From Phoronis australis (Eukaryota > Animalia > Phoronida), in the NCBI GenBank assembly GCA_002633005.1, contig NMRA01000001.1:1211755-1275754 (forward strand): DNA of 64,000 nt, written 5' to 3'. A program made the position numbers and the translations under genes. Below the pieces are notes generated by a model that had not been told where the DNA came from, searched no databases, and worked only from the letters and a program-made list of their open reading frames with translations. Positions 5,200 to 62,084 of the stretch are shown here, in pieces (positions within the stretch are counted from its first letter, which is position 1; the number at the start of each line of letters is the position of its first letter).

Positions 5200-5460
5200 A
5201 CAGTGACCACTTCATTCTAGCTGAGTAGAGACGATGCACCTCCTGTAGCTTTTCTGCGAATTATGCCTCACTCTGTCTAAAACGTCAAAGTCATGTTGTT
5301 ATAAATACATTTTGCGCATAGAGGGACACCTTAGGACTAGGAGGCCGTTTATGTATTAAATTCCTTCCAACTCGAAGAAATACTCCTATTATCAAACTTC
5401 GAGCAGTCCTTCCTTCAGTTTCCAAAATTGGAAACTCTACATTTTAACGTTGCACACGGC
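5200..5460 (+). repeat. Fragment of the same TIR repeat family as 46952-52752 and 47266-48607
   Basis: Shares AATTATGCCT..GTTGTTATAAATAC.TTTTGCGCATAGAGG.ACACCTTAGGA..TTCCTTCCAACTCGAA with 47350-47530. Confidence 0.75.
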
Positions 5461-10649: not shown

Positions 10650-11541
10650 GTGAAGTCATTAGCTGTAACTTGCATAATGTTAGCAACTTGCCCATTACCT
10701 TGTGATGTTCTGAGCTCTGTAGAACCAGCCAGATTCAGCACTAGTGCCATCTGGTGTCAAATATACAACAGCTATATATGCTCACTGGGTGTCATTCTTG
10801 TGCATTTTACCTGGGCAATGTTCCATAGATGCAAGAACCTTGCGAAAATGCAAGATCAAATTAAGACTTAGAAAGATATCAGCATATGTTAAAAGTGAGG
10901 CATGTGATTACTGTGCCTTTCCTCGCCAGATTCTGGCGTCAATGAGACCCGCCCTGGTTAAGATTGGTTCCGTTTCATCGTTTCTCTGAAAAATCACACA
11001 AGTTTGGGGAAAATGTTGTGTGTAATTTTGAAAGTTCATGTATTAGGTTCATTTTTAAGTGATTATGGGTCACCTTTAGTTTATTTGTTCAGAGTTTCAC
11101 GTTGCATCTGGACTGTTTGGTGTTGTCAGGTGAGACAATCTTCTCTCATGACTTCTCATAAATACCATACTTTTCTCATAAATTGTATTTCTTTCATCTT
11201 AAGTAGCAATGATTTTCTTACAAACAATTTCCTCAGTAACCCCACAGTAACCCATAGTGTACTGTACTTTGCACTGTACCAACCACCTGCTTTCTTCCAC
11301 GTCCTGTCGGAGAGTGAAAATGACAAAGGTTCATAAGGAAAGAAATGTCTTCATAAGAGCCGATTTTCGTCATGAGAACAGAACGGTATTCATGAGAAAG
11401 GACTACACAAACGGTTAACGACTATCCTAGTGCAGGATTATTGTCTACAGTATGAATGCACATGATGTATTCTGTACTTCCACTGCACTGGTCTTATTTT
11501 TTTACATGAGAGTAATGGTACATTTTTATTATAAATTCCAG

Positions 11542-12516
11542 TTTTTGTGTGTGGATCGCTTGGATTTCACGACTTGATGAAAGAGGAGTACTTAATTCAA
11601 CTACTTAGTTGGCAGAAGCCTTCAGGTTGTTATGGCATAATGCCAAAGCCCAAGAACTCTTCTGGGCTGAAAAGAATGCCTCCCTATGAATCAAGAGACT
11701 ACGACTACCTCGATGATATTCTAACCCCACGTGAAACACCTAAAAAGGATGTTGCCCATAGTGATTTAAGCCCTAAACTTGCCAGTAGTAATCTAAAAGT
11801 GAATGATGCTCATTTAAAAAACCTGCATGGTGGTGGAGATAAGAAAAACATTCCCAGTTCCAGGAACACGATAAATAAAGACGTTAATCATAATGTGAAA
11901 ACAAGACTCAAATCTAGTGATATCAATATGCAAAAGCTTGGAAATGTGGCTAACAGAATTGACGATGGCCATTCAAAGCATAGACATGACTCTGGTGTTG
12001 TCAATCAGCGATATGAGGGACATAGAATTGATTATGAAAAAGACAAAGTGCGAAATACTGGAGAAGTGATGGTGGGTGAATTGAATCCTAGTAAATCTAA
12101 AGTGGTAGCAAACCAAGGTGGTCCACCAAATAGACAACAGTTTGATGGTGGTCATAACCAACAAGAGCTTGAACTTCAAAATGCTTTCAAAAACCTTGCC
12201 GGGAATGTCGGTGCCTCGAGCAATGGTGGAAATCAGCCTCATCTTCATGTGAACGCACCCCTTGTAAATGGGCCCAAGTCACTGCACATTCAGAACAGCA
12301 ATCAGATACCTGTTGACAGAGGAAATGTTCCCAAAGTCAAGAGTACAGTCAAGAGTCCAGTTAAGAGAAATAAAAGAGACACCTATGTGTTGAGTAATGT
12401 GGCGCCATCTGCAGGAAAACTTGTGAAACTAGATGAAAATGAGATTGATCAGCGCAGAGGTGTTGTCAAGAGAGGCCACATTACAAGGAAACTTCTCCTT
12501 GAACAGGACATGCCTG
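11542..12516 (+). CDS. C16orf89-like protein, large exon with ~290-aa low-complexity insertion
   Basis: ttccag/gtatgt; VFVCGSLGFHDL...LLSWQKPSGCYG is the family CG..GF..F...W.Q...GC[FY]G motif; ends RKLLLEQDMP. Confidence 0.85.
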
Positions 12517-13132
12517 GTATGTGATACAATGTACTATGTGAAATGTAATGAAACAAAATGACATGTAAATCTCATTGCCATTGCTGAGTGCAACATGAAT
12601 TGATTCTCTGTAGCTGTTTGTCTTGATGTGAAATCTACATGAGGGTGAAACTATTCTAGCTGTATGATGGATCAGTACAGCTCACTTGATCAGTTCAATT
12701 GGAATTAACCATTATGACAAAGAACTGTATTTTGTCTGATGACTTATTTTTGGTTTTGCCTTAACAATTGACTGATTCTCTATTGAACAGTCTGTATTGG
12801 TCATTGTCTTTGCTCAATGGAAGAGCATACGGGTACAGGATTTGGGATATTTGCTAGGGTGTCTATATCAATTCATTGTTGTATATCTGCTAATTGACCC
12901 TTAATAAACAGATTGATGTTTTCTTAAAAGGCAATGCTGGAAACACATTTCTCTTAAAATCCCATGGTTTCCAGACATTAATAGTTCTAGACATTAATAG
13001 TTCTCTATCAGTCTTTATAGTAGTTGATAATTAGTATATTGAGCTGTCCAAAATGTGCTTTATATTTGGCACTGTGCATCAATCTTCTTTGACTCATTTC
13101 AATTTACATTTGATATTCATTCCCTTTTGCAG

Positions 13133-15500: not shown

Positions 15501-16247
15501 CCGATGCGTTCTGATGAGACCACGTCTGCAGTACAGAAACCACTTCTTGCTGTTGGCCATCAAGATGAGGAAGTGTTCCACAAAGAGGTTAAAGAATATC
15601 CTGCTCAAGTGAACAATGTTGGAGACGAAGACTTTGATCAAAGAGAAGAAGAAAAGGAAGGTCAAGAAGAAGAAGAGGAAGAAGAGGACAGAGAAGATGA
15701 AGATGGAGTTCCTGTTGATGGTAACGTGGGTGTGGACATGGACAAGGATGATTATGGCGATGGGCATGACTTGGAAGACAAAGAGCTTACTGGTGAGGGA
15801 GAGGGTCAAGTGAGAGGTGCTGAAGAGGAAAATGAGGAGCAAGATGGAGGGGGTGGAGATCAAGGCGCAGGGGTTAGAGGTCATGGAGCAGGAGTTACAG
15901 AGAGGCAACACAAGGGGTTAGAAGTCAAGCATGGTGCTGTTATTTACGGTGATTTCAAAGAAGAAGGAATGGGCAGCAAGGAAGGTCCAGGTGAGGTGAG
16001 TAAGCATAGGGCTGGCGGGGATGCTTTGGAAGAGGATGATGGTGGAATGGACTTTGGGGAAGGGAAAGACGTTGCTAATGACATTGTACAAAGGGAGTTG
16101 ATTGAGTCAAAACTGAGGCAGAAGATGGACATTGGGTACTTGCACATTGCCGTCATGGTGGTCAGTTTTGTATTTGTCTTCTTGCTCATGATGAGGTTTG
16201 TAAAAAAGCGCCGCATTTCCATTCGATATTTTTTGGGTCATAGGTAA
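15501..16247 (+). CDS. C16orf89-like protein, last exon: acidic/Gly-rich stalk, TM helix, basic tail
   Basis: ttttttttag acceptor, phase 0 continuing 13290; E/D-rich region then YLHIAVMVVSFVFVFLLMMRFV-KKRR; stop TAA ends at 16247. Confidence 0.7.
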   Translation, partial: PMRSDETTSAVQKPLLAVGHQDEEVFHKEVKEYPAQVNNVGDEDFDQREEEKEGQEEEEEEEDREDEDGVPVDGNVGVDMDKDDYGDGHDLEDKELTGEGEGQVRGAEEENEEQDGGGGDQGAGVRGHGAGVTERQHKGLEVKHGAVIYGDFKEEGMGSKEGPGEVSKHRAGGDALEEDDGGMDFGEGKDVANDIVQRELIESKLRQKMDIGYLHIAVMVVSFVFVFLLMMRFVKKRRISIRYFLGHR

Positions 16248-45193: not shown

Positions 45194-46321
45194 CTGCAAT
45201 TAAAAAGGAATACATCATAACTGAGTGGAATCAGGAGCCAGATGAGACCATAAACTGCCATTTTGCTAAAGCTGTAAATATGCTCCACTTACTGCTGGCC
45301 ACGAAATCAAGAATTTGCTATAATTATTATCAAACTGGACAGGTTGTTATTGTATTAATTCTATGTAGTTTGATGTCAACATTCAGTTGCAATAGATCAG
45401 TAGCTCGCAATTAAATTGAATTAACGAAATTTTTTAATCATTTTTCGGCATCGAAATTATCTGGATGACACTGGCAATTAGGCCAAAATTTAGGACAAGT
45501 GACTTAGTTTTTATCTTTTTCCACACAGGTAAATAGAAGGAAAAATAAAATTCAAAATGGAAATACGACTACAAATGTTTTTCTACTGAATTTGCAACCA
45601 TTCTGCAAATAAATGTTAATTCTAGCTTTAAAGTTGCAGTCTGTGAGTGACTGCTATCTTTCTTCGTTTGCCTGACACATGAAGCACCACCTCTCAATAG
45701 TGGCAGACTACATCGCCATCTATCGGTCACTAACAAACTTACTGCGGACAAGCGCAAACAAATACGGCTTGGCGTTGAAGTGGCAGTAAACTCACCTTCC
45801 AGCACAAAAACAACTATTGAATTTGATCTTTTAACCATTATGAAATTGGTCTCAAATTGTTTGTTAGTCAAATCAGGTTATAACGGCTCATCCCATTGGC
45901 TTGTCCATGCATAATTTTACGCACCATGCAGGCATGGTCTCACAAGCAATAACGAGCAGTCAAAACTCCTTTTTCATGTGAGTAAGAATCAAGGCATCTT
46001 CATCATTATGCATAAGCCATAACCCTTAATAGCCACTTTAGCTGTGAATGTATTGACTTGTATGACACACAGAGTTCCCAGTAGTGAATAAAGGCTTCGC
46101 TAATTCATCTGCCAATGAGGGAATGAGCAATTGCCTCGTAATGCCCAACCAGTTTGGACGCTCCAGTAGCACGTTGGCAACCCGGAAAGTTTATTGGTTT
46201 GGCAACAACAATGGAACTAATGGAAGACACACACATCATTCACGTGCGAAGCTTTCAACAGAACAGAAACTAAGTAACAGATGCAACTTTTTCATTTTGT
46301 ATGTTGGAAACTACATATTAC

Positions 46322-46465
46322 CTGGCCTAATTGGGGGCCAAGTGGTGGAGACGGCATCGCCTTGCCAGCAGGAATGGTAACAGCCAAAAAGGGCGGATGG
46401 TTTATCTTCTCCGCAACCTTCTTTGCTCCTTTCACAGCCTTCTTCAAGCCAGCCCTGGCAGCCAT
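46322..46465 (-). CDS. MRPL11: MRPL11 exon 1
   Basis: MAARAGLKKAVKGAKK...TIPAGKAMPSPPLGPQLGQ (uL11 PxPPLGPxLGQ motif); gtaata donor. Confidence 0.95.
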
Positions 46466-46708
46466 TTTCTTCGAGCGCCCCCTGTCAACTGGTCAAGAAA
46501 CTTGTGAGCAAATGCACATTCATAAACCCTAAATTTGAAAACAGTTGGAAAATATATTACATAATAATTTTCACAGAGAATCTATGTCTTGTTTTCAACC
46601 GTCAAAAAGCTCAAAATATACGCAACTTTTATGATTTACTAATTGCCCACCACATATCGCATGTGTGTGCAATACAGAACAGGGTAAAGTTGAGCGTGAA
46701 GATTAAAA
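46466..46708. promoter_or_regulatory. Putative bidirectional promoter/5'UTRs between MRPL11 and the SAP-domain gene
   Basis: Two ATGs facing away from each other only 243 bp apart; both in AAAATGGC (YY1-like) context. Confidence 0.65.
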
Positions 46709-46805
46709 ATGGCCGACGGTAGTGCACCGGCGTTGGAAGATCTGAAGAAACTTCGGGTTGTTGACCTAAAAGAGAGGTTGCATGCTCTTGGATTGACTAC
46801 GTCAG
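46709..46805 (+). CDS. SAP-domain, Q/E-rich protein (possibly SF3B2/SAP145), exon 1
   Basis: MADGSAPALEDLKKLRVVDLKERLHALGLTTS(G): first half of a SAP motif; donor gtactg, phase 1. Not in the ORF track. Confidence 0.85.
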
Positions 46806-47265
46806 GTACTGTAATTACTTACTTAATTAAAAGAGAATTCCATTAGACCATATATCGTAAACAACACAGAGCTCGGCATTAAAGCAAAATGCCAACTGGT
46901 GTGCAGTGCGGTTACGGTCGTTGGGTTACGAAAAAGGCGCACACTAGTGATTAGACAATGGCCATCGTCTCTGCTGGAGCAGCCAGCAGATACGATGGAG
47001 CTCCTGTAGGAGCTTCATACGCCGGAAGATTTTCGGTGGATTATGCCGCACACTGGCTAAAACATCACAGTCACTTTGTTACACAGGCACCTGGCCCTCA
47101 ACAACTATACACTAAATAAAGAGAAAGGTACTGTTGTAAATTGTGGCTACTTAGGTTCTACGGTGCTACTTACCCTTGTCCATTTCTTGACTTTATACGC
47201 GCTGTGAAACACACGTCCTCTTCTCATGGAGGACGACACACGAGAGAGCAGGTCCAGCAGCTCCC

Positions 47266-48607
47266 TAGGCAATGACCATCGCCTCTGTTGACCCGAACCA
47301 GAGGCGATGCAGAGGCTATAGGCGCTCTGTACGCCGGAAACTTTTCGGCGAATTATGCCTCGCACCGACTAAACCATCAAAGTCACGTTGTTATAAATAC
47401 CTTTTGCGCATAGAGGAACACCTTAGGAGGTTGTCGATGTGTTTAATTCCTTCCAACTCGAACAAATACTCCCGTTATGAAACATTTTCTTCGAGCAGTC
47501 CCTATTTCAGTTCCCAAAATCGTGAAATCAACATTTTCATTTTTTTAACCAGGCCGAAGGTCAGAAGTTGCGGACCTACCGGCGAACTTTGAAAGCTGAA
47601 GTTCCCGCCCTTCGCGTACATGCTGCCGGGAACCAGTCGTGCATTTGCCGTGTTGTTAAACATTAAAATGTCAAATATGTGCACAAAGACTATTAAATGT
47701 CATATCAACAGCATTTATTTTTATCAAATACAAACAATAATTCATTGAAANGCCCGACCAGAGGCGATGCAGCTCCTATAGGAGCTCCATACGCCGGAAG
47801 CTTTTCGGTGAATTATGCCTTACACCGACTAAAACATCAAAGTTACGTTGTTATAAATACCTTTTGCGCATAGAGGATCACCTTAGGAGGTTGTCATTGT
47901 GTTTAATTCCTTCCAACTCAAACAAATACTCCCGTTATCAAACTTTTTCTTCGAGCAGTCCCTATTTCAATTCCCAAAATCATGAACTCAACATTTTCGC
48001 CAAGAGATTCTTTTAGCCAGGCCGAAGGTCAGAAGTTGCGGTCCTACCGGCGAACTGAAGTTCCCTCCCTTTGCATACGTGCTACCGGGAACCAGCCGTG
48101 CATTTGCCGTGTTGTTAAACATTAAAATGTAAAATATGTGCACAAAGACTATTAAATGTCATATCAACAGCATTTATTTTTATCAAATACAAACGATAAT
48201 TCATTGAAATTCCATCAGTTTCAAGTAACGCCAATTAAAGACAAGTAGTGGTGGCATTTTGGAAAGGAACATTTGACTGACAAGACCGCAATGGCTCACC
48301 TTTGGCCTATTTAAAGATTGAGGTCATGAAGTCACATCACCTAGCTAGCGCGGTAAAAATTGGAGCGTGTGCAGTATAAAAATGGTGAGTTCACGATTTT
48401 GGGAACTGAACGAGTGACTGCTCGAACAAAAAGTTCGATAATATATTAAGTATTTGTTCGAGTTGGAAGGAATTAAGCACACCGCCAACCTCCTAAGGTG
48501 TCCCTCTATACGCAGAAGGTATTTATAACAATGTGACTTTCATGCTGAGGGCCTATAGGAGCTGCATCGCCTCTGGTCGGGCCAACAGAGGCGATGGTCA
48601 TTTCCTA
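47266..48607. mobile_element. Younger long-TIR non-autonomous element (TAGG..CCTA, Academ-like?) inserted in the 3' LTR
   Basis: TAGGCAATGACCATCGCCTCTGTTG.. and ..CAACAGAGGCGATGGTCATTTCCTA with ~250-bp inverted arms; CCC on both sides where the intact LTR has CCCC; internal duplicate across N at 47751. Confidence 0.8.
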
Positions 48608-48711
48608 CCCAGTCACGTGACATATAATATATCCGGTCAACCATAGCACTCATACGAACAAGGACGGACGACATTGAAACTGGACAACAATACCTACCTA
48701 GGTTCACGACA

Positions 48712-48726
48712 CTCCTCCCCTCCCTA
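48712..48726 (-). other. Polypurine tract of the LTR element
   Basis: AGGGAGGGGAGGAG on minus strand directly abutting TG of the 3' LTR. Confidence 0.8.
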
Positions 48727-49327
48727 AAAATAACTAAATAATCTGATTGAAAAAAAAACTAATGAGGAGTGAATGTGAACAGGAACTAAAAAAACTATAA
48801 CTACTTCCCCCCCCCCCCCTACCTAAGTAATAGTTAGTGGACAAACAGCCTCAATAATGAGACATGTTAGTACAAACTATGGCGTCCTGTAACTAAAGTA
48901 TAAAAAAACAATGTGACGGGGGGTCCTAAACTAAGATTAAAAAATGTGAGGAAAAATGAGACAATTCTTGGAAAAAAGTCAAAACAACAAAATAAAAACA
49001 AAATGAGCCAATAATAAAAAAAACTGAACGTTGAGTACTCTAATTGTCAATTAAACTAATAAAGAAACAGATTATCAACTTAACACAACAAAATTAATAA
49101 CAATAAGGTAGCATAACTTGTTGAAACTGAGCAGACCTACCCGCGAATGAGTATCCCTGGATCAGCCTTTTTTTGATGTGACTGAAAAAAAAAACAATAG
49201 ATTTTTAGAGGAATGTCAAAGGTAGTAACTGGTAGCTTTTTGCTACTTCCCGTGAACTATTAAAAATTAACTACAAAGCTATGCTACTAAACAAAATGAA
49301 GCAACGCTGAATTCAACGTCGACGAGT

Positions 49328-50919
49328 CTACAGCTTATACAATCGGCGGGCATTCCTAGCGGTTTGACGAAGGACTTGCGAAACGGTCGTGCCACGATGT
49401 TTGGCCACCACCTCAGCCACCTCTCCTATGAATTGGAAGATAATTTGGACGTTCCTTCAACGACAAATGTGGTGCGTCGGTCTCCAAAGGGAGACGGTCT
49501 TCAGTTACCTTTGCAAGGCATCAACTTGCCATCAAGTGAAGGTGTTACAATTGTTGGAAAACCCGAAATAGCAGTTCGGGAACTGTTGGCAAAAATTTAC
49601 TACAGCGTTGGTATCCCTGGTAAAAGTGTAGGTGGATCCTTTGGGTCAATGGAAGAAGATCCGCAACAATGTTGAACACGGTTCGGAAGTCCCAGTCGTA
49701 GTGGGAACCAGGGGAGGCCGAACGGATATGGAACACCAAAGTCTTGTCCTTTACATTTCCATGGCGACGAGTAAGGTTTGCGAAGTCGCGGAGTAGATCT
49801 TCAATGAAACGAGCCTGTTCACGTTCGTTACCCATGGACTGTTCAAACCCTATTTCGCCAAGACCTGCCACGGAAGTTTCCCGGAGAAGCTGAAAGTGTT
49901 GTTCTGGCAGCCTCCTAGAAGTTACTGACTTGTTTTGGGTGCACGCCTACCACCGCTTTGAACCCTTGAGAAAGAGCCCTCACGTAATCCTTGATAGAAC
50001 GACGATGGTATTCTGCTGGATTGCAAAAAACAATGATGCCACCCACCAGTTTAATAGGATGCGACGAAGAGCGGTGAGGGGTCGCATCAATAAGGTCCGG
50101 TATGGACAGAAAACGGCTGTTACAAATATTGCCTTTTGAGCGGTAAGCTGCCGTCAAACGGTCAATATGGAAATGGGAGTCTATAGCAGACTCTAATGCT
50201 TGAGGTGATGTAGCTGGCAGAAATACAGGAGCTTTGAATGGTGCTCGAGCAGCACTCGCGTAGGTCTTTATGGTAGAAGACGTGGTCGATTGACTCACAC
50301 ATGGCGGAGCTAAGGACTGTACATCTTTTGAACCATAGTCGTATGACAGGGCCCACACCAAACAGTTAGGTTCTGGCACGCGCGCCATCAGATGCAGCAC
50401 CACAAACCATGCACAGGCCAGGGTTTGTAATCTTCCAGAAATTGACAAAGGTTTTACCGGCATTGGCCACCCCAGTACCCGGCACGAGATCATTAGGTGT
50501 AACTCGTCTTCTATAGTTACACGGGGCAGCTTGGCAACGCTGCGGACGGCCAAACCCGCGAGTTCGAGAAGATCTTCATAGTTGCTCATTACTCGCCCTT
50601 CAATCTGCCAGAACAGAGACTTAAGTGCTTCAAAATGGGCATGTTGCACCTCATTAGATGAAAGGCGACACAGTGAGTAGACATCAAAAACTGCCGGCAG
50701 ATGATTTGTCAAGGCGTGTGACCGTAAGAGGCCCTCTCCGGCTGAAAAACTACAGAGTGGACAAATCAGATCTCCCGGCTTTGGTTTACGATTGGGAGGT
50801 GAAGGTGAGGATGCAGATGCCTCACTAGAACGATTAGATAGAGGTGGCGGGTCTCGCTCACTTCTAGATAGAGCTACAGATTGGTCAACTACTGACTTGG
50901 CAGCGTCAGTAGATTCCAT
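49328..50919 (-). pseudogene. Zn-finger + TatD-family nuclease, frameshifted, inside the LTR element
   Basis: CPLC..H..H; AIDSHFHIDRL; VGVHPK; GLGEIG; LVFHIR; RIHLHFY; FPNCYFGFS; DRLPLETDAPHL; FIGEVAEVVAKHRG..V..QTARNARRLYKL*: all TatD motifs in order. Confidence 0.9.
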
Positions 50920-50947
50920 AGGTTCATCTTCCTGAACTAAATCTGGA

Positions 50948-51539
50948 CTACTTACACCAGTTATTCCCTTCTCTACAAAAAGATACGGACTTCAGTGAAT
51001 TGGAAGTAGCCATCAAGTCTTTGGTTGTTGAAAACCACCTTGCGGCATTCAAGTCAGCCATGAGTGTGCTTGGTCGACTGTTTATAACCAACTGCGCAAC
51101 CTCTCTATACCGTAGACTTAAACAGAACCGAAGAACCGCCTGAGCTTCATCAGAGTCCCTCGCCTCTGGAAATGCCAACAAGAATAAACTTGTAAGGCGG
51201 TGAGCCCATTGAAGTCTGCTTGGCTGACTGGAACCTAAGTTGGTGTACTTCATTGCACTCGACATCTGCCCCAAAACGATAGATCATATGATCCACAATT
51301 TGGTCGAAACTTGAGTGTGGATGAGCTTTAATATGGTTGAAAAACCAACGAGAGGCATCACCTTCCAAGCACATGCCCAGCTCCGTTCTACATTTTTGAC
51401 CTGACCAAAAATTGTTTCGGGCAACATTACTGAATTTCCATAGAAAATCCTCCCATGTACCTGACAGGTAATGAGTGCCAGAGCCAGAGGGCGTAGGTGA
51501 CATGTTAGTATGCGAATGAGTCTGCATAAGCAATGCCAC
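50948..51539 (-). pseudogene. Gypsy-type Gag/capsid-like region, one frameshift
   Basis: SGTWEDFLWKFSNVARNNFWS...LGMCLEGDASRWF...SFDQIVDHMIYRFG...RFQSAKQ / WAHRLTSLFLLAFP...AVLRFCLSL. Confidence 0.8.
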
Positions 51540-51873
51540 TACCAGTCTTTGACGACGGAGTCAGTTTAGCTGCCAACTTGGAAAATAAATAGTCAGGACT
51601 AGAGGTAAGTATAGAGGTTTTCTTACCATATTCGTCACAAACCTTGACTACTTCCTCCAAATCTTCTGGCAGACCACATGGGACTGTAAAGTCTATGGAC
51701 TTTTGCAGAGTCTTGGTTGGCTTCCAGCTGCAATGTATCTTGCACACATTCTCCGGAGTAATAGCCAATATTGCTCTGAAGTCCATAACTGCAGCAGCAA
51801 CATTAGCAGTCATACCCGGAAGGTCCAACAGTGTTTCAGCGTCACAAGAATTGATAAGAATCTTGGACGTCAT
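51505..51873 (-). pseudogene. N-terminal helix-hairpin-helix (ComEA/HhH_3-like) segment of the element ORF
   Basis: KILINSCDAETLLDLPGMTANVAAAVMDFR resembles ININTAxxEELxxLPGIGxxxAxAIIxYR. Confidence 0.6.
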
Positions 51874-52137
51874 TATAAGGTGCCAAAATTAGGTGTGGCA
51901 CTAGGGAAATAATAAAGTCTGCAAAGACTGAAATACCAAACAAATGATACCTATAGCATTTATATTTACCAGACAAAAATGAAAAATCAAGAATGTAATA
52001 AACGAAACAGCTGAACACCCATGTTCAGTGACCTACCTGCTATGACACGGTAGGTACCGAGCGACAAAGAAAAACAAATCCACGAAAGATACTTTGAATT
52101 ACGCGCCACTCGGTGTAAAGGTAGAAATTGCACGTAG

Positions 52138-52148
52138 CAACTACACCA
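52138..52148 (-). other. Primer binding site, probably decayed tRNA-Ser type
   Basis: TGGTGTAGTTG 2 nt after the 5' LTR; equals TGGCGTAGTCG (complement of tRNA-Ser 3' end as I recall it) with two CpG>TpG changes. Confidence 0.55.
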
Positions 52149-53214
52149 AATGTAAATTGTCGCTACTTAGGTTCTACGGTGCTACTCACCCAGGTCCATA
52201 TCTTGACTTTAAACGCGCTGTTAAACACACATCCTCTTCTCATGGAGGATGACACACGAGAGAGCAGCTCCAGCAGCTCCCCAGTCACGTGACATAATAT
52301 ATCCGGTCGACCATAACACTCATACAAACAAGGACGGACGACATTGAAACTGGACAACAAATACCTACCTAGGTTCACGACAGTACACAACTGCTATTCA
52401 ATATGGTCGTATGCAAGGTACTTCCGGACCTATTTTTCTTGTAACCAATTAGTGTGCCCCTGGAATTTATTGTATAGTTGAGGGCTGATCAAAGGTGCCT
52501 GTGCTTTGTTATAAATATCCTTTGCACACAGAGCCAGAGGGACACCTGACCTGGCTTAGGAAGTCCTTGTTGTATTTAATTCCTTCTACCTCGAACAAAT
52601 GCTCCCGTCAAACTTTTTTCTTCGAGCAGTTCAGTTTCCAAAATCGGCAACTCGCCATTTTTAACACTGTGCCCAGCAGGTTGCATAACATATGTATCCC
52701 CTAATGTGCGTAGTGTAAAAATGGCGAGTTATGGACATATGGTCATTGTCTAACTAGTGAATAGTTATAGGCTAACAGCAGGTTAGAATGACAAAGTATT
52801 ATAGTTATTCACTAAAACTATATGACTCTATGAAACTTTGTTATGTAAAGAATTTGGTAATTTTTTACAATATGATGACATTGACCTACACACATGATTT
52901 TGGTGTTGTTAGATTCCTCGCAACATTATCTTTCAAAAATATATGAATGTATCCCCAGTATTTTATCGTCGAATTTCTGTTCGCACTATTTCCCGATTGA
53001 CACTGCCATGGTTTCTCAACTCAAGATTATTAGAGCGACACTTGTTGCTAATGAATGAAACAGTATCATTGATTCCGAATAGTGTTTGGCCACGAGATTC
53101 CTGACATAACATGGAGGAACAAGGGGCAGCATTTCACCCTTTTCCAATTTTTTTTTAGAATTGTGACCATTTGACTTTTCCACAAAATTCTCAGAATTGT
53201 GATACCCTTTTCAC

Positions 53215-55339: not shown

Positions 55340-57080
55340 ACAGCGTGGCACATTATGACAGGGGCAGAAAAATCTGTCGTATCGCCTAAATGGTACCACA
55401 TTAGAGCAAAACATTAGGTGAGTACAGTGGCTGCAGTCGTGGAATTCACATTTTCTTCAATTAATCATCTCTAGAGATGCACTCTGGCATAGTTGCGGTG
55501 GTGGCCACATGTTACAGACGCAGCAGCTGTCCTCATCCTCCGTGTCCAAGTCCTCAATGCGGTCACTTTCGAACTGTGAAGCATGTGATTGCTATAATCC
55601 TGATGGACCTGGTTCATTATCATTTCGTGGTTTCTGAACTTGACTTGTTACTGTTATTCTCTCCACTTGTCTTTGTAGTCACCTTTGACTTTTTTATCAG
55701 CTGTTTCTTTTTTGTCTCTTATGCCCTTTTGTCACTTGTGCCTTCGTTGTGCCCTTTTTCTTTTCTAGCACTTCTACATTCTCTGTCATCATCTTACAAG
55801 ACAAACTTGCAGATCTGCTTGAACATACTTGGTCACTTGGCATTGGCCTCTTCGCTTCTGTACACCTTTGTAACTGTTAAGTAAAAAATCATTTTCAACC
55901 TCACTTTCATCAGTAGTCGGTAAGAATGCTGTAGATGGAGTGACCCTTTCAAGGGTTGTCAAACGGGCATATTCCGGACTTTCGGAAAGCCGATTGAAGA
56001 TTTTCAAGAGACACCGCTTTCACGTAGGTTTTGCTTGCCGTGGAACAAAGATCGAAGCGAGTAATTCTGGCCCTTGTACCTTTCTTCGCTTTGTGGCACA
56101 AGTTACTATACACCGCCTCCCCTGGTTCATACACCCAACATCAAGTGGTTGTAGTATGTGCCATGTGTGGGCTGGCAGAGTTAAAATTGCAATGTGGTCT
56201 TTCGCCCATTCTACTATAGTTACATCCGTGTCTGACTTGTGGCCATCAAGTAAGAGTTGAACAGGCTCCTGAGGGCCACCTGGGACAAACTTCGCTAGGT
56301 GAACTTGGAGCCACTTGAGAAAGACTTCAGAGTTTGATTACCCACTGTCTGTGACTGTTCCACTGGCACCTGGAAAAGAATCTTTGTGACTGTTCCACTG
56401 ACACCTGGAGAAGAATCTTGCAGTAGATCCAAGTTGTTGTATCTTTTCCCCTTTAATACAAAGAATGCGGGAGAGGTCGCCTGGCCAGCTGCACTGCCAC
56501 ATCCCAATATCGATGGTCACAGATCTCCCTGTTGTGACCACTTGGGGAGAGGGCACTTTTTGTTCGGCTGTAGGTGACAAAGTGTGTAGGCTTGTAATTG
56601 GTCATCACACTCTTTTCATCCACATTAAATATGTGGTTTGTCTTCCAAACCATACTTCACCACAGCAGAACGCAACTTTTGTCAGTATTCACTTGACTTG
56701 CAGTTTTGCTCTTGCTTATTCTATACCCTTTACCTTAACAACTCTCACCTCTGGCCAGCACTTTACAAACCCTTTAAAGCACTTAATGGAAAGGACTCTT
56801 CTGTCTTCCTTATTCCCTGCTGGAAGAACCACTCCGTCACCATGGTGACGACTTCTTGCCTTGTATACCCATACCCAAGACTCGCCATTTCTTTTATACG
56901 TTTTACAATTAAGGCTTCCTGATGCGCATCGAAGATTGTAGACACAATCCTTGTGACGAATTCAGGTTCTATCCTCCAACTTACTCGATCTCTCAGTGTT
57001 TGGTATGGAACATTGCATTTTGCAGCTGTTAAGTTGATGGACCTGCAATCCTCACGTACTTTATTGTATGGCTCAAATAA
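55340..57080 (-). mobile_element. Degenerate pogo/Tigger (CENP-B/DDE_1) transposase
   Basis: HTH AAKCNVPYQTLRDRV..QEALIVKRIKEMASLGYGYTR; IFNVDE; GCGSAAG..P.FVLKGKR; LLLDGHKS; HILQPLDVG; SAFRKSGICPFD; many frameshifts. Confidence 0.85.
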
Positions 57081-58146
57081 ACTGCATACATCATACTGTC
57101 TCAAGTTTCTGTATTGTGTTTTTACAAGCTTCTGTAATATAAATAAATGTTTTATGAACTGTTTCATTCTTATTATGTGCTCCTGTTTGCTTGCATTGTG
57201 TGTTTTACCATGTTTCTGCGCCACAGGGTAAAAAATACAAAGTAAAAATGCATACAGAATTTGTGTAAAAGTGTACATTTTATGTTTCGGATGTTATAAA
57301 TGTGTACAGTGACATCTTTCGTGAGTCAGCGTACTTTAACCAATGCTAAGGACCCAGCATGAAGAAAATCTCTGTGCTTAGTTCGTTTGGCCTTTCAAAT
57401 TATGGTCGACCCTGGGACATTTTGATACATTGTTTTAGTAACCCTTTGGATTGCGTTCTGTATCATATCTGAACCATGGTTGATTTCGAAACATGTTTTG
57501 AAAATATGCAAAAACTGCATTAGTAAAATGTGCTGTTTTAAATATAATTTTTGAAAACTAACTCTCAACTCACTGTTTTGTTTTGCATTATGAATAACTA
57601 CGTATTCCAATACGCTTTTGACAGTCATAAGCACACAAATGCTGGAAACTTCAATGCTAGATGTCGTGCGACCTCGCAGAAACAGAAACGAGATGATTCA
57701 TGACTTCAGTGCATTGCCGACTTTAGGGCCTCGGTTGTTATGTATTAACTGCTTCTTAGTGAACTCTGGTTGATGTTGACAAAATCGGGCTCTGCTTTGA
57801 TGCTGAGGGCTTAAGTGCCTTCCCAGCTGAAGTTTTAAACCTGTCACGACAATTTTTAAACTCGTCATGCTTTGCCCAAACTCATCGCAGCAAAATCCAA
57901 ACTCGTTACCGCAACGAGTCAGAACAGGTTGTGGAAAAATACTGGTGATCTTTTCAAAAGTTTGGACAAAGCTTGGGTGGAATGTGGGTTCGTAACGTTT
58001 TCCATTCCTGAAAGCCAACATTTTCTTACCGCAAATGTTTAGTGGAGTGTCAAGCAAATACAAAACATTGACCAGAAGCTAAACATTCAAATTGTACTTT
58101 TCAAGCATAAATTCACATGTTGATCAACAGTACTTTTGTATTTTAG

Positions 58147-58193: not shown

Positions 58194-60060
58194 GTAAGTT
58201 ATTTTAAACTTTTTGACTTCATCTCTACAATTACACTGTTTTGGAGTAGAGAAGAATGAGAACAGTTAACTATAATGTTCCAGTATTTCACCTGCGAGTA
58301 CAAATCTGTGCGGCCCGCCAAGCTTCTTTTTGGCCCCGTCACTTGCAACCTTGCCCAATTTAACCGTCAAACATCTACCCTGGTGGGAAAACTTCACAGC
58401 TAAGCAAAAATCACTAGTTAAAACGAATACCCAATATTTATAAGTTACACGGCCACTGTCATTGTTTGTGAATTGAAGGTTATGAACTAAAATCGAATTT
58501 TAAACGTAATTATTTTATCCCATTTCCTTCCTTGCATTCACATAGGGACTGGCATTCAGCACTGCCTGGTAATCTGACAAATGTACAATTGTAAAATATT
58601 GTTTGGAACAAGGCAATGACCTTGACACTAGTTTTCTAAAATGGCGAAGTGCCAAAGAACACTGGTGAACTGGGTGGAGAAAAGGTAAGTTTTTAGTCAT
58701 TTTATTGTGCCCATGTTTACAAAAGAAGTCATTCAACTACGTGAATTATATTGCGCGAAATAGCCCAGTAAGATGGGTGAATAAATCGCCTGATATGGCG
58801 GCTAGTGCCGATCCAACTGATTTTGTTGAACAAGAATATAATGAACAATATAAACGGAAGTTTAATTACACAAATTAGTTAATCAGGCCTGGAAATGTTC
58901 AAATATTTTTGTTTTTGCTGTGTACTACGTGCGTGGAGCCTGAGACTTTAATTGTAACTAGTAGTCTGAAGCCTTGTCCTGGCGTGTCTGCTTCCAAACA
59001 CAACTTCAATTGGTGATTAAAACACCTTAGAATAAATAAATAAATGCAAAATTCTTCATACACAGAGATCATTGGCAACGTGTTTTGCGAAGCACAAAGA
59101 TACCCCCACTACATACAGTAGTCTCATGCTCAGGTTGAGGTTTTGTCTATGAGAAAGAAGCTTGTAGAATGCACCAGACTGCACCAAATTACGATTTTTA
59201 AAAATTTTCTTGAGGTAGGCTGCCAACCACCCATGTCCCGTAGCTACGTGTGGTGGCGCGTTCTGCATCCTCTGGTAATATTCACCACCATGCTCCTTTT
59301 GATACCCAGGGGAAACACTCGTGTTCTATGGATTCTTCCTGATTTTAATTTGATTCTAGGAATGGTTTAAATGTTTACCTAGTGATTGCACTTGACACTG
59401 AAGAATGCTTCATACTCACTCTCATAGGGAAAGGTGTCTGTGCCTTCTGAGAGGAGAATGTCACGTGGTGAGAGGAAAATTCTACCTCTCGATCCATCAA
59501 CCTAAACTAAACAATTTGGGCTCTTTCAAATTGTCACCTGTGTGAGTTACTGGTGATTCGAACCTCGAAGGGAATATTTAAATCACTTGTGGGGAATTTA
59601 TGGACATCATGAGGGGACTCCCATGTGATTTTTCAATATTTTTCAGAGGATCGACCTCAAAACTGAGGGATTGAGGGCCCTGAAAGAGTTGAATATCTGT
59701 CTGGCTGTTAGTTGTTCTTTACAATGATGATTTGTGATCATATTTATGTCTGGAACTATTATATATTTCCAACTTTCAAAGCTAAATGAGACGCAAATAA
59801 AAATGCTGACTTTTATTAACCTTGCACGGTATTGCTGACAGAACATTCTGTTGAAAACATCTTCTTTATCCGACAACTGGTGGGGGGAGTAAAGGCCCCG
59901 TCTGGCCTTGACTGACAGCAGGCTGTCACTTCTACACTGTAATTATAGAACGAAGATTGTGATATCAGGATGTCCACATTCAAGTGCTACTCAACACAAT
60001 CAAAGCTTTGTGTTTTACAACCTTTACCATTATCTCATGCTCATTTCTTGTTCATTTGAG

Positions 60061-60297
60061 CAGCAAAGCCAGGTTGCCATGGCGCCAGCAGTTGATCCCC
60101 AGATGCTGATGCTTGAGCAGCAACAGCAGCAAGAGCAACAGCAGAGAATGTTGTTTGAGCAGCAGATGCAACAACAGCAGGAGGAACAACAACGACTGAT
60201 GTTGCAGCAACAGCAGGAAGAGCAAAGGTTGATGTTGGAGCAACAACAACGCCAACGTGAAGAACAACAGCGGATGTTGATTGAGCAACAGCAACAG
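60061..60297 (+). CDS. SAP-domain gene exon 3 (Gln-rich)
   Basis: QQSQVAMAPAVDPQMLMLEQQQQ...; tandem acceptors at 60061/60064; donor gtactg. Confidence 0.8.
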
Positions 60298-60829
60298 GTA
60301 CTGTAGACCGTGACCCGCTAAAGCAGAGTATGTTCTATGTGTAAAAATCTGGGTGGCCCGCCACGCTCCTTTTTGGCCCTTCTACTCGTAAATTGTACTC
60401 AAATTGACACATCTAATCGTGATGGTAAAAACTTCATTGCCATGCAAAAATCGCTAGACAAGTACAAATAGTCTAATGAATACGCACAAGTCACATGGCT
60501 ACTTTTACCATTTTGTGGCTCAAACTTTGAATTGTCTCCCCCATCTATGGCCATGCATAGATGCGAAATTGTGATTGTCATACTTTTCTCGTACTCTCTG
60601 TGACTGCCAGTTTTCCACCACCTGGGTCGTTAGTCCGTTCACATCACTGATTCTTCAAACTCAATTAGAAACAATATTGAGCATAACTTGTCGTTAGGGT
60701 TTACATTCGTCACACCCACTTCACTGAGCGCATGTAGTACCTTGTTTCTTGGACAATTCCATTTTGGAACATGGGATAAACACTAAAAGGCTCTAGGGAG
60801 TAATGGGATTATTACTTTTCCGCCAACAG

Positions 60830-61243
60830 GAAGAACAGCAGAGGTTGATCCAGCAGCAAATGATGGAACAGCAACGGCAGCAGGAGGAGCGCCAACGTGT
60901 GTTAGAGCAGCAACGCCTTCTTGAGGAACAGCGACAACGAGAAGAGCAGCAGATGATCATGGAGCAGCAGCGCCTCCTAGAGGAGCAACGTCAGCGGGAG
61001 GAGCAGCAGCTGATGGAACAGCAGCGGCTGAAGGAGGAGCAAAGGATGATGGAACAGCGGAGGATTCAAGAGGAACAGCGCATGATGGAACAGCGCAGGA
61101 TTCAGGAGGAGCAACGCATGATGGAACAGCAGAGAATTCAGGAGGAGCAACAGCGAATAATGGAACAGCAGAGAATTCAGGAGGAGCAAAGGCTGCAAGA
61201 AGAACAGCGAAGGCAGGAAGAAGAAAAAATGTTGATGGAACAG
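60830..61243 (+). CDS. SAP-domain gene exon 4 (EEQRMMEQRRIQ repeats)
   Basis: caacag/gtgagt; phase 0; ~12-aa tandem E/Q/R repeats. Confidence 0.85.
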
Positions 61244-62084
61244 GTGAGTGGCTGGAGTTGTTAGAATGGACTTTGGAGGTTTGATAACGCTGTTCAATTT
61301 AGTTACATTAATTCTGCACTTACTTGTCGCACTCACCTCAGTTTGTACACCCAAACTTGTTTGGCTAAATAAAGTATGTTATTTCACTTTCACTCTAGAC
61401 TACTTGACGGCATGACAGTAACTTCCAACTCGTGACTAATTCTCACATTGGCAGGATATTGCTGTGACTAAAGGGGTACAAGGGTACAGTTACTAGTTTA
61501 GGAGACAGTTTCTTAGTTTCGAGATTGTTCAACCATTAATTCAGCCTATTCAAAAGTGGTTGACAAGTGCATTTGTTGTAATAACGCAATGCAATTTGAA
61601 CGTTTCTTTTACTGACTTTGTGATAGCTGTCACTTGCTGGCTCACACAAAATAGTTTTGGCATTCAAAAGCTCTGCATTCACTGTCGTTACAAAGTGTCT
61701 GTTCCACCTACGTGTCCTTCACAAAAGTTTGCGGTCCCTAATTTTGGAAATCTTTTGTTAGTAATGACAACTTGATAAGTTTAATGTCGGTTACACTTGC
61801 CTCTTAACATCTTGGGCTCAAAGTTAAAATTGAACTGTCTAGTAACACGAATCGGCCTGATTCCATGATGAAAAGCACGTGCGGACGCCATATTATACCG
61901 TTTTTTCTATTTAAATTTTACTAAAGATACATAGTCATGTGACCCAATCAACAAAAGATTGCTATTAAGTTAACAATCTAGGTCTACAAGCTTTCTACTT
62001 TCAATAGAAATTTGACTTGCCAATAAGGTCCTTCATAACCTGTTCAGCCGACCTTCTTCTGTAACGTTAGTGTGTTGTTTGTAG

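Follow-up and report, generated by a model that had tools for sequence, protein, structure and literature searches.

A minus-strand copy of an LTR retrotransposon, at positions 47135..52382 of the 64,000-nt stretch of Phoronis australis DNA analyzed here (the window), holds a Gag-like region followed by a TatD nuclease domain. TatD nucleases are TIM barrels whose metal ligands are HxH, E, H, H, and E/D. The locus raises the question of whether it represents a pol-less family in which Gag is linked to a nuclease, as proposed in the original prediction, or the remains of an element that carried its TatD gene in another form.

Anatomy and coding content of the element copy

The element sits within the first intron of an expressed plus-strand host gene with a SAP domain, and its features are compiled in Table 1. 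Several parts of the initial description were borne out. The paired TG..CA LTRs of about 232 bp are identical at 218 of 231 ungapped columns, the polypurine tract is a run of 14 purines, and the interior, given as about 3.4 kb, measures 3,439 bp. TGG starts two bases past the 5' LTR, as in a primer-binding site; tRNA genes were not found in the window. The proposed 4-bp target-site duplication stands in that GTAC is present on each flank, but it is not exact and only probable because the left side has 3 extra bases. The 3' LTR is split by an insertion of ~1.3 kb with terminal inverted repeats (TIRs) of ~20 nt and very high read depth, which arrived later than the LTR element.

Table 1. Features of the LTR element copy and its immediate surroundings (positions in the window)
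Feature	Position	Strand	Evidence or remark
First exon of host SAP-domain gene	46709..46806	+	First intron (to about 58150) contains element
Probable 4-bp target-site duplication, left copy	47128..47131	.	GTAC
3' LTR, outer piece	47135..47265	-	LTR alignment; true end may extend to 47132
Later TIR insertion splitting 3' LTR	47266..48607	.	~20-nt TIRs, very high read depth
3' LTR, inner piece	48608..48711	-	LTR alignment
Polypurine tract	48712..48725	-	14-nt purine run
TatD nuclease domain, five broken pieces, metal-site motifs kept	49331..50190	-	Profile matches, motifs
CxxC..H..H zinc finger and helical domain, as is usual for TatD proteins of the element type	50377..50763	-	Profile E 6.6e-9, motifs; folded in relative P0010
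Low-complexity linker remnant of TatD ORF	50764..50961	-	Relatives' conserved N-terminal domain absent
Probable deletion/recombination junction	50961..50962	.	Point at which other copies diverge, to either side; Gag and TatD frames not in register
Gag capsid-like region, several broken frames; common to high-depth family	50962..51560	-	Retrotrans_gag E 0.016, Ty3_capsid E 0.16, read depth
Helix-hairpin-helix-like motif (weak), start of Gag region	51775..51864	-	Pfam HHH_3 E 0.005; PDB EEPD1 E 0.065
Probable primer-binding site	52131..52148	-	TGG two bases past LTR
5' LTR, TG..CA	52151..52382	-	232 bp
Probable 4-bp target-site duplication, right copy	52383..52386	.	GTAC

The predicted absence of protease, RT, RNase H, and integrase from the interior was confirmed, since none of the 64 six-frame pieces of at least 30 amino acids matched retroviral protease, RT, RNase H, or rve. 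A single plus-strand piece matched Integrase_1 at chance level (E 0.083), and the integrase part of P0073, a TatD relative described below, gave no tblastn match in the window. The helix-hairpin-helix and Gag assignments were recovered as matches to HHH_3 and Retrotrans_gag, but these are weak and, like the match to Ty3_capsid, lie under the curated cut-offs. The single-sequence model of the Gag piece was uninformative, with a pLDDT of 40, and no PDB sequence was matched at E < 0.05 by any of three pieces from the Gag region.

The zinc finger and the TatD domain with its expected metal ligands were also recovered. A profile built from relatives matched TatD in five pieces, with E values from 4e-20 to 1.5e-4, and the metal-site motifs DSHFH, GEIG, FHIR, IHLH, and ETDAP are all present, in broken frames. 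Both Gag and TatD are thus disrupted and the copy is dead, as had been stated. A further profile, which covers the N-terminal domain conserved among relatives of this TatD protein, found 17 of 18 held-out relatives and nothing in the window (best E 4.6); judged by this search, the domain is missing from the window copy. Within the two folded domains, 21 of the 32 listed differences fall on third codon positions (p 2e-4); for the linker and the Gag end, the corresponding figures were 7 of 18 and 2 of 6.

The junction between Gag and TatD

The claim that Gag is linked to TatD was not confirmed: at the junction, the two frames are one base out of register, and the Gag frame reaches a stop four codons further on. 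In DNA run X1, the Gag side is matched from 50962 by a contig of depth 135.6, with 3 differences in 92 nt before it passes into unlike sequence, and the TatD side is matched up to 50961 by a contig of depth 28.9, which then runs into 218 nt of unlike sequence; these Logan contigs are filtered, and contig depth is no copy number. The latter contig shows 37 differences and 15 gap letters relative to the window over 50640-50961, and it alone accounts for the depth over 50847-50961 in X1. Near-identical contigs had depths of 6.3, 9.8, and 11.8, versus 7.1 for unique flank. The predicted pol-less family was not supported by the reads: the high-depth contigs depart from the junction on both sides, most copies do not have it, and window-like copies are found at about single-copy depth. 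We infer that this layout is private to the locus or to a few copies.

Read depth in X1 was 140-200 over Gag versus 37-86 over TatD. Because Gag depth exceeds TatD depth, TatD may be missing from many of the copies that share Gag, and the parent is not necessarily a single simple family. RNA runs X6, X7, and X8, all from one study, gave a depth over the TatD ORF of 10-30 in sense versus 0-8 in antisense; other TatD copies are thus transcribed in sense. At the junction itself, sense depth over 50916-50961 was 0 in X6, about 1 or less in X7, and 0 in X8, and loose read ends were seen ahead of 50962 (13 reads in X6 and 6 in X7). A splice generating a subgenomic RNA was considered as the origin of the junction and rejected, since the ends of the skipped part in the loose-end table are unlike GT..AG.

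A lineage of element-type TatD proteins

We retrieved 53 relatives of the element-type TatD, for which the named hosts are molluscs and a starfish. A number of observations can be made on this set. (i) The zinc finger-helical domain is common to 40 of the 53 proteins, and no Pfam capsid match was found on the same chain in any of them. (ii) TatD is not confined to this copy; in addition to the many relatives elsewhere, among them 13 cluster members in Mya arenaria, related TatD copies are multi-copy in the Phoronis australis reads. (iii) In P0073, an Acanthaster gene model that may merge two ORFs, integrase H2C2, rve, and PHD domains stand ahead of the zinc finger-TatD part. (iv) DNA-context scans recorded the zinc finger-helical domain at 0 of 172 loci among the matches listed (80 + 80 + 12), a set from which element loci may have been displaced by other matches. 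The model of one relative, P0010, has a TatD barrel (pLDDT 92) and matches TatD structures (for 6l25, Z 28.9, rmsd 2.6, 248 aligned). The fold-search lists for P0010 were filled by TatD-barrel matches.

In a quick, unrooted tree, built without TATDN1, TATDN3, or echinoderm TATDN2 rows, both window TatD pieces were placed among 34 element-type TatDs, and a branch with an SH-aLRT of 100 divides this group from 28 TATDN2 and 30 bacterial rows. Another branch, with a support of 99, sets the 28 TATDN2 rows apart with no element row among them, and in this tree the element TatDs were not nested in the TATDN2 clade. The window copy shows both features of the element-type clade, namely, a zinc finger-helical domain ahead of TatD and a position in the element lineage. 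An FCDP-like motif is present in all 34 element rows, in 23 of the 28 TATDN2 rows, and in none of the 30 bacterial rows, and profile scores are higher for TATDN2 than for bacterial TatD; these scores and the motif suggest that the element TatDs may descend from TATDN2.

The view of TatD as a conserved part of an LTR-retrotransposon lineage was thus upheld by the many relatives, their separate lineage in the tree, the third-position bias, and the sense transcription. Across long divergence, LTR retrotransposons of marine invertebrates appear to have retained a TatD nuclease as an accessory ORF. In existing annotation, such proteins from bivalves are listed as uncharacterised host genes and those from symbiont MAGs as bacterial TatD, entries that the present analysis flags as errors.

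Origin of the copy and comparison with known systems

Taken together, these data make it probable that the window holds a dead, deleted or recombined copy of a Gypsy-type family with the order gag-pol-ORF3(TatD). A single deletion or illegitimate template switch would have joined the Gag half to the TatD half out of frame, removing the gag end, the pol presumed to have followed it, and the beginning of a third ORF that stood alone; in other Phoronis australis copies, pol would follow Gag. The parent ORF3 protein would consist of the N-terminal domain, a disordered linker, the zinc finger and helical domain, and the TatD barrel, and is predicted to be an active accessory nuclease that is made separately. 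As to its role, our best guess, offered tentatively, is a TATDN2-like RNA 3' exonuclease that might clear R-loops or trim structured RNA where the element itself is located or in its transcripts, rather than cargo packed by Gag.

It is unlikely that the copy instead belongs to a small non-autonomous subfamily comparable to bdelloid TelKA2n, in which a single event created the junction and the resulting element without pol moved in trans on a few occasions, with an N-terminally shortened TatD ORF translated separately. The retained LTRs, primer-binding-like site, purine tract, and probable target duplication fit such a history, as do antisense reads that cross the junction in two other samples (about 8 read-depth units in X6 and 4 in X7), some of which differ from the window copy and carry differences of other family copies together with a 120-nt go-back joint. 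In X1, however, window-like TatD copies are left with a depth of about 10-22 versus 7.1 for the flank, and sense depth at the junction is near zero. As the host gene is expressed from the plus strand and the element is situated in one of its introns, we take the antisense reads to be intron RNA of the host, derived from alleles of the locus, although paralogous copies without pol would give a similar picture. A broader version, which we consider less likely again, would see an old mollusc/echinoderm LTR-element lineage whose swappable 3' module holds an accessory gene, under selection and transcribed, for a nuclease related to TATDN2; in Phoronis australis this module would also move pol-less as a helper-dependent subfamily, supplying the nuclease in trans, e.g., for clearing R-loops or cutting silencing RNAs for the whole family.

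A Gag-TatD fusion family, the product of which would co-assemble into helper particles and process or destroy nucleic acids inside them, is highly improbable. Gag and TatD do lie head to tail in one interior, and P0035, an unrelated-looking match, combines a CCHC knuckle and the beginning of a TatD domain in one chain. Against this stand the out-of-frame join, the missing N-terminal domain, the departure of the majority of copies at the junction, and the relatives without a capsid domain; no fused forms were found when long relatives (628-2000 aa) of the 358-aa ORF were sought by a word-indexed search, which is weak evidence. Furthermore, human TATDN2 is minimally active on plain RNA:DNA duplexes according to PMC10711561. 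The fusion model is largely refuted, and the related idea of capsid-targeted inactivation found no support in the data. An isolated event in which a defective LTR element captured a host TatD gene or received it by independent insertion, which would suit the near single-copy depth of the window-type TatD variant, is the least credible reading and is refuted by the well-supported tree position of both window pieces, the shared zinc finger-helical domain, and the multi-copy relatives in Phoronis australis and Mya arenaria, unless the whole clade consists of host genes.

No paper describing a TatD-carrying LTR retrotransposon was found, as judged by titles and abstract starts; Repbase, Dfam, subscription journals, or supplements could describe one. 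"TatD" is absent from the main text of PMC5408684, PMC6338049, PMC6238403, and PMC13228809. The interest of the locus rests with the TatD clade, the window copy itself being a wreck.

Ty3/Gypsy elements are defined by the pol order PR-RT-RH-IN and an RT in the Gypsy clade. The window copy resembles them in its TG..CA LTRs, TGG-started primer-binding-like site, purine tract, probable 4-bp duplication, and, weakly, a Retrotrans_gag/Ty3_capsid-like Gag, but it has no pol, the part to which this definition applies, and has an extra TatD ORF. Human TATDN2 (PMC10711561) likewise has a TatD barrel after a long disordered N terminus, and it shares the FCDP-like motif, whereas the element TatDs form their own lineage beyond the sampled TATDN2s and have two extra conserved domains. 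Bdelloid TelKA2n, as described in PMC5408684, is a precedent for a pol-deleted derivative that has lost the gag end and most of pol and kept ORF3; TelKA2n, however, is described as a family and has an env-like ORF, whereas here the start of ORF3 is also gone and the layout looks near single-copy. A further parallel is provided by the bdelloid LTR retrotransposons Juno and Vesta, which also have an enzymatic, non-env extra ORF, a DEDDy ORF3 predicted to be a 3'-5' exonuclease, the role of which is left open in PMC5408684. The nuclease described here differs in being a TatD TIM barrel partnered by a zinc finger-helical domain, and in relatives whose named hosts are molluscs and a starfish. The TatD ORF3 offers a testable case for what enzymatic ORF3s do for retrotransposons.

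The decayed element and its host locus

The minus-strand LTR retroelement of the window genuinely belongs to a TatD-bearing LTR lineage, as a decayed and probably internally deleted copy. The paired ~232-bp LTRs of the original prediction were borne out, being identical in 218 of 231 ungapped columns. TGG begins two bases past the 5' LTR, a 14-nt purine run adjoins the 3' LTR on its upstream side, and GTAC is found at both element ends, offset by three additional bases on the left side. The interior comprises 3,439 bp, and none of its 64 six-frame pieces of at least 30 amino acids matched retroviral protease, reverse transcriptase, RNase H, or rve, in agreement with the predicted lack of protease, reverse transcriptase, RNase H, and integrase. 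Sense-strand Pfam matches in the interior were HHH_3 (E = 0.005), Retrotrans_gag (E = 0.016), three TatD pieces, and a DUF at chance level. The predicted TatD content stood, with all five metal-site motifs present, whereas that of Gag and HhH stays at the level of these two E values. When searched with a profile built from relatives, TatD was found in five pieces; the copy is dead, as the original prediction held.

The element lies within intron 1 of a SAP-domain gene, antisense to it. The insertion that interrupts its 3' LTR contains an internal ~460-bp tandem duplication and reached a depth of up to 9e4 in the DNA run X1 (contigs), compared with ~7 for unique DNA.

Features of the element, its host locus, and the rest of the window
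Feature	Position	Strand	Remarks
5' LTR	52151-52382	minus	232 bp
3' LTR, two pieces	47135-47265 + 48608-48711	minus	Interrupted by 1,342-bp insertion
TIR-bounded insertion within 3' LTR	47266-48607		~20-nt terminal inverted repeats; apparent 2-bp target duplication
Pieces related to this insertion	5247-5458, 46987-47081, 52506-52663
Head-to-head pair	46292-46806		Ribosomal protein L11-family exon (minus) and SAP-domain gene (plus), ~250 bp between
SAP-domain gene	46709 (ATG); ~58150 (next exon)	plus
Repetitive exons	59893-61264	plus	Rich in glutamine/glutamate/arginine; possibly belong to SAP-domain gene
176-aa frame	56763-57293	minus	No Pfam match; presumably resembles a decayed DNA-transposase N-terminus
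Long exon	11535-12524	plus	DUF4735 match
Long exon	15501-16247	plus	Acidic, hydrophobic end

Relatives of the TatD frame

A sequence search of 1.84 billion representatives with the 358-aa TatD frame retrieved 41 relatives (E ≤ 0.001), 35 of which had a Pfam TatD match; a profile search added 12 relatives and one TATDN2, giving 53 element-type proteins. Judged by sequence, the TatD ORF of the element is part of this clade. Named sources were Mya, Pecten, Mactra, Argopecten, Acanthaster, and bivalve-symbiont-type MAGs, and one Mya cluster had 13 members entered under different loci. For the relative P0010, the predicted fold (pLDDT 92) matched TatD structures best. A zinc finger-helical domain is common to 40 of the 53 proteins, and 19 (the 18 of the profile training set and one other) have a further N-terminal domain. 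Five relatives (P0001, P0018, P0020, P0066, and P0074) are filed as bacterial (Sedimenticola and Ca. Thiodiazotropha MAGs); their contigs measure 2.5 to 11.7 kb, and they are likely animal host DNA in bins. The relative P0035 (ENA contig, 1,433 bp) joins a CCHC knuckle and an element-type TatD start in one chain, the sole indication of a Gag-like segment attached to TatD.

A quick, unrooted tree was built from 94 rows, namely, 34 element TatDs, both window pieces, 28 of the 120 TATDN2-like matches listed, and 30 of the bacterial loci. The element TatDs and window pieces are set apart from the TATDN2 and bacterial rows by a long branch (SH-aLRT 100), and the branch leading to one of the window pieces is itself very long. 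Element-profile scores were 144 to 191 bits for TATDN2 rows, with one at 342, and at most 138 bits (median, 109; n = 172) for bacterial ORFs among the matches listed. An FCDP-like motif was present in 34/34 element, 23/28 TATDN2, and 0/30 bacterial rows. These scores and the motif distribution suggest that the element TatDs are akin to TATDN2, in an unrooted comparison without TATDN1 and TATDN3.

The junction of the Gag and TatD sides

The region was covered by X1 and two RNA runs; a second DNA run, from another organism, had little match. X1 depth, which gives no copy number, was 90 to 200 across the leader and Gag (50962-52188; also given as 140 to 200), ~37 to 86 across the TatD ORF, 3' region, and most of the LTR (48670-50961, 52189-52395), and ~7 in the unique flank. 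Because of this difference, a high-copy family may have the 5' half in common without the 3' module.

The pol-less layout looks like damage, for the following reasons taken together. (i) Closer alignment revealed a sharp depth step at 50961|50962. The Gag-side contig (depth, 135.6; 3 differences in 92 nt) diverges past this junction, the TatD-side contig (depth, 28.9; ~89% alike) continues into 218 unlike nt, and no X1 contig bridges it; 13 RNA reads of X6 and 6 of X7 are loose-ended there. (ii) At the junction the Gag and TatD frames are one base out of register, and a stop closes the Gag frame four codons farther on. (iii) The zinc finger lies just 66 codons from the junction, whereas in 32 relatives a median of 286 residues precede it (range, 2 to 471, with many models truncated), and the conserved N-terminal domain is absent from the window, although the profile of this domain recovers 17 of 18 held-out relatives. 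(iv) Contigs nearly identical to the window copy had depths of 6.3, 9.8, and 11.8, close to that of the flank. The claim of a pol-less family is not supported, nor is that of Gag linked to TatD, given the frame offset and the lack of a Pfam capsid match in all 53 relatives.

These data would fit a single deletion within a parent element and, equally, template switching between two elements, a high-copy one bearing Gag and another bearing TatD. A few paralogous copies might share the junction, since antisense RNA crosses it (depth of ~8 in X6, ~4 in X7, and 0 in X8), but host intron RNA from alleles of the window locus explains these reads, as the X1 flank contig itself shows 10 letter differences and 9 gap letters relative to the window in 425. 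Five antisense reads of X6/X7 carry a 120-nt go-back joint (50852-50971) spanning the junction, which resembles the product of a tandem duplication absent from the window.

Apparent activity of other copies and possible role of TatD

The RNA runs are three samples from a single study. In X6 and X7, with strand calibrated on a host exon of the plus strand, transcripts covering 49291-50739 were mostly sense to the element (10.6 to 30.5 versus 0 to 6.8 antisense in X6; 9.2 to 20 versus 0.9 to 7.9 in X7). The majority of aligned reads were <95% alike to the window copy and hence come from other copies, in which several of its breaks were not found. At the best-supported places (best 40 of 911 and best 40 of 83), third codon positions held 12/19 differences in the TatD domain and 9/13 in the zinc finger domain (combined, 21/32; p = 2e-4), compared with 7/18 in the linker and 2/6 in the Gag end. 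This excess suggests that, between subfamilies, the folded domains have been under purifying selection. The TatD family looks alive outside the window copy, and the 53 relatives, their separate branch, and the third-position bias uphold the view of TatD as a conserved part of an LTR lineage.

In the Acanthaster gene model P0073, integrase H2C2, rve, and PHD precede the TatD part, from which we infer a gag-pol-TatD order; the parent would be a gag-pol element of Gypsy type whose third ORF encodes a separate protein. According to PMC10711561, human TATDN2 degrades R-loop RNA from the 3' end; its binding depends on the disordered N-terminus, and its activity is minimal when the substrate is a plain RNA:DNA duplex. 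By analogy, the predicted element protein would most likely act at element loci to remove R-loops or trim structured RNA, a role we favor over the alternatives but rate as somewhat short of probable. It might instead process DNA ends or abasic sites during integration or interfere with small-RNA silencing. Nothing in these data supports the proposed packaging of the nuclease into particles.

Our search, which covered parts of the published literature, PMC12709183 among them, found no account of a TatD-bearing retrotransposon. The closest comparison is with bdelloid LTR retrotransposons, which, as described in PMC5408684, carry enzymatic ORF3s (DEDDy exonuclease and GDSL esterase) and include a pol-deleted derivative that retains ORF3. 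The lineage here would likewise have an enzymatic ORF3 and a pol-deleted derivative, the nuclease being a TatD.
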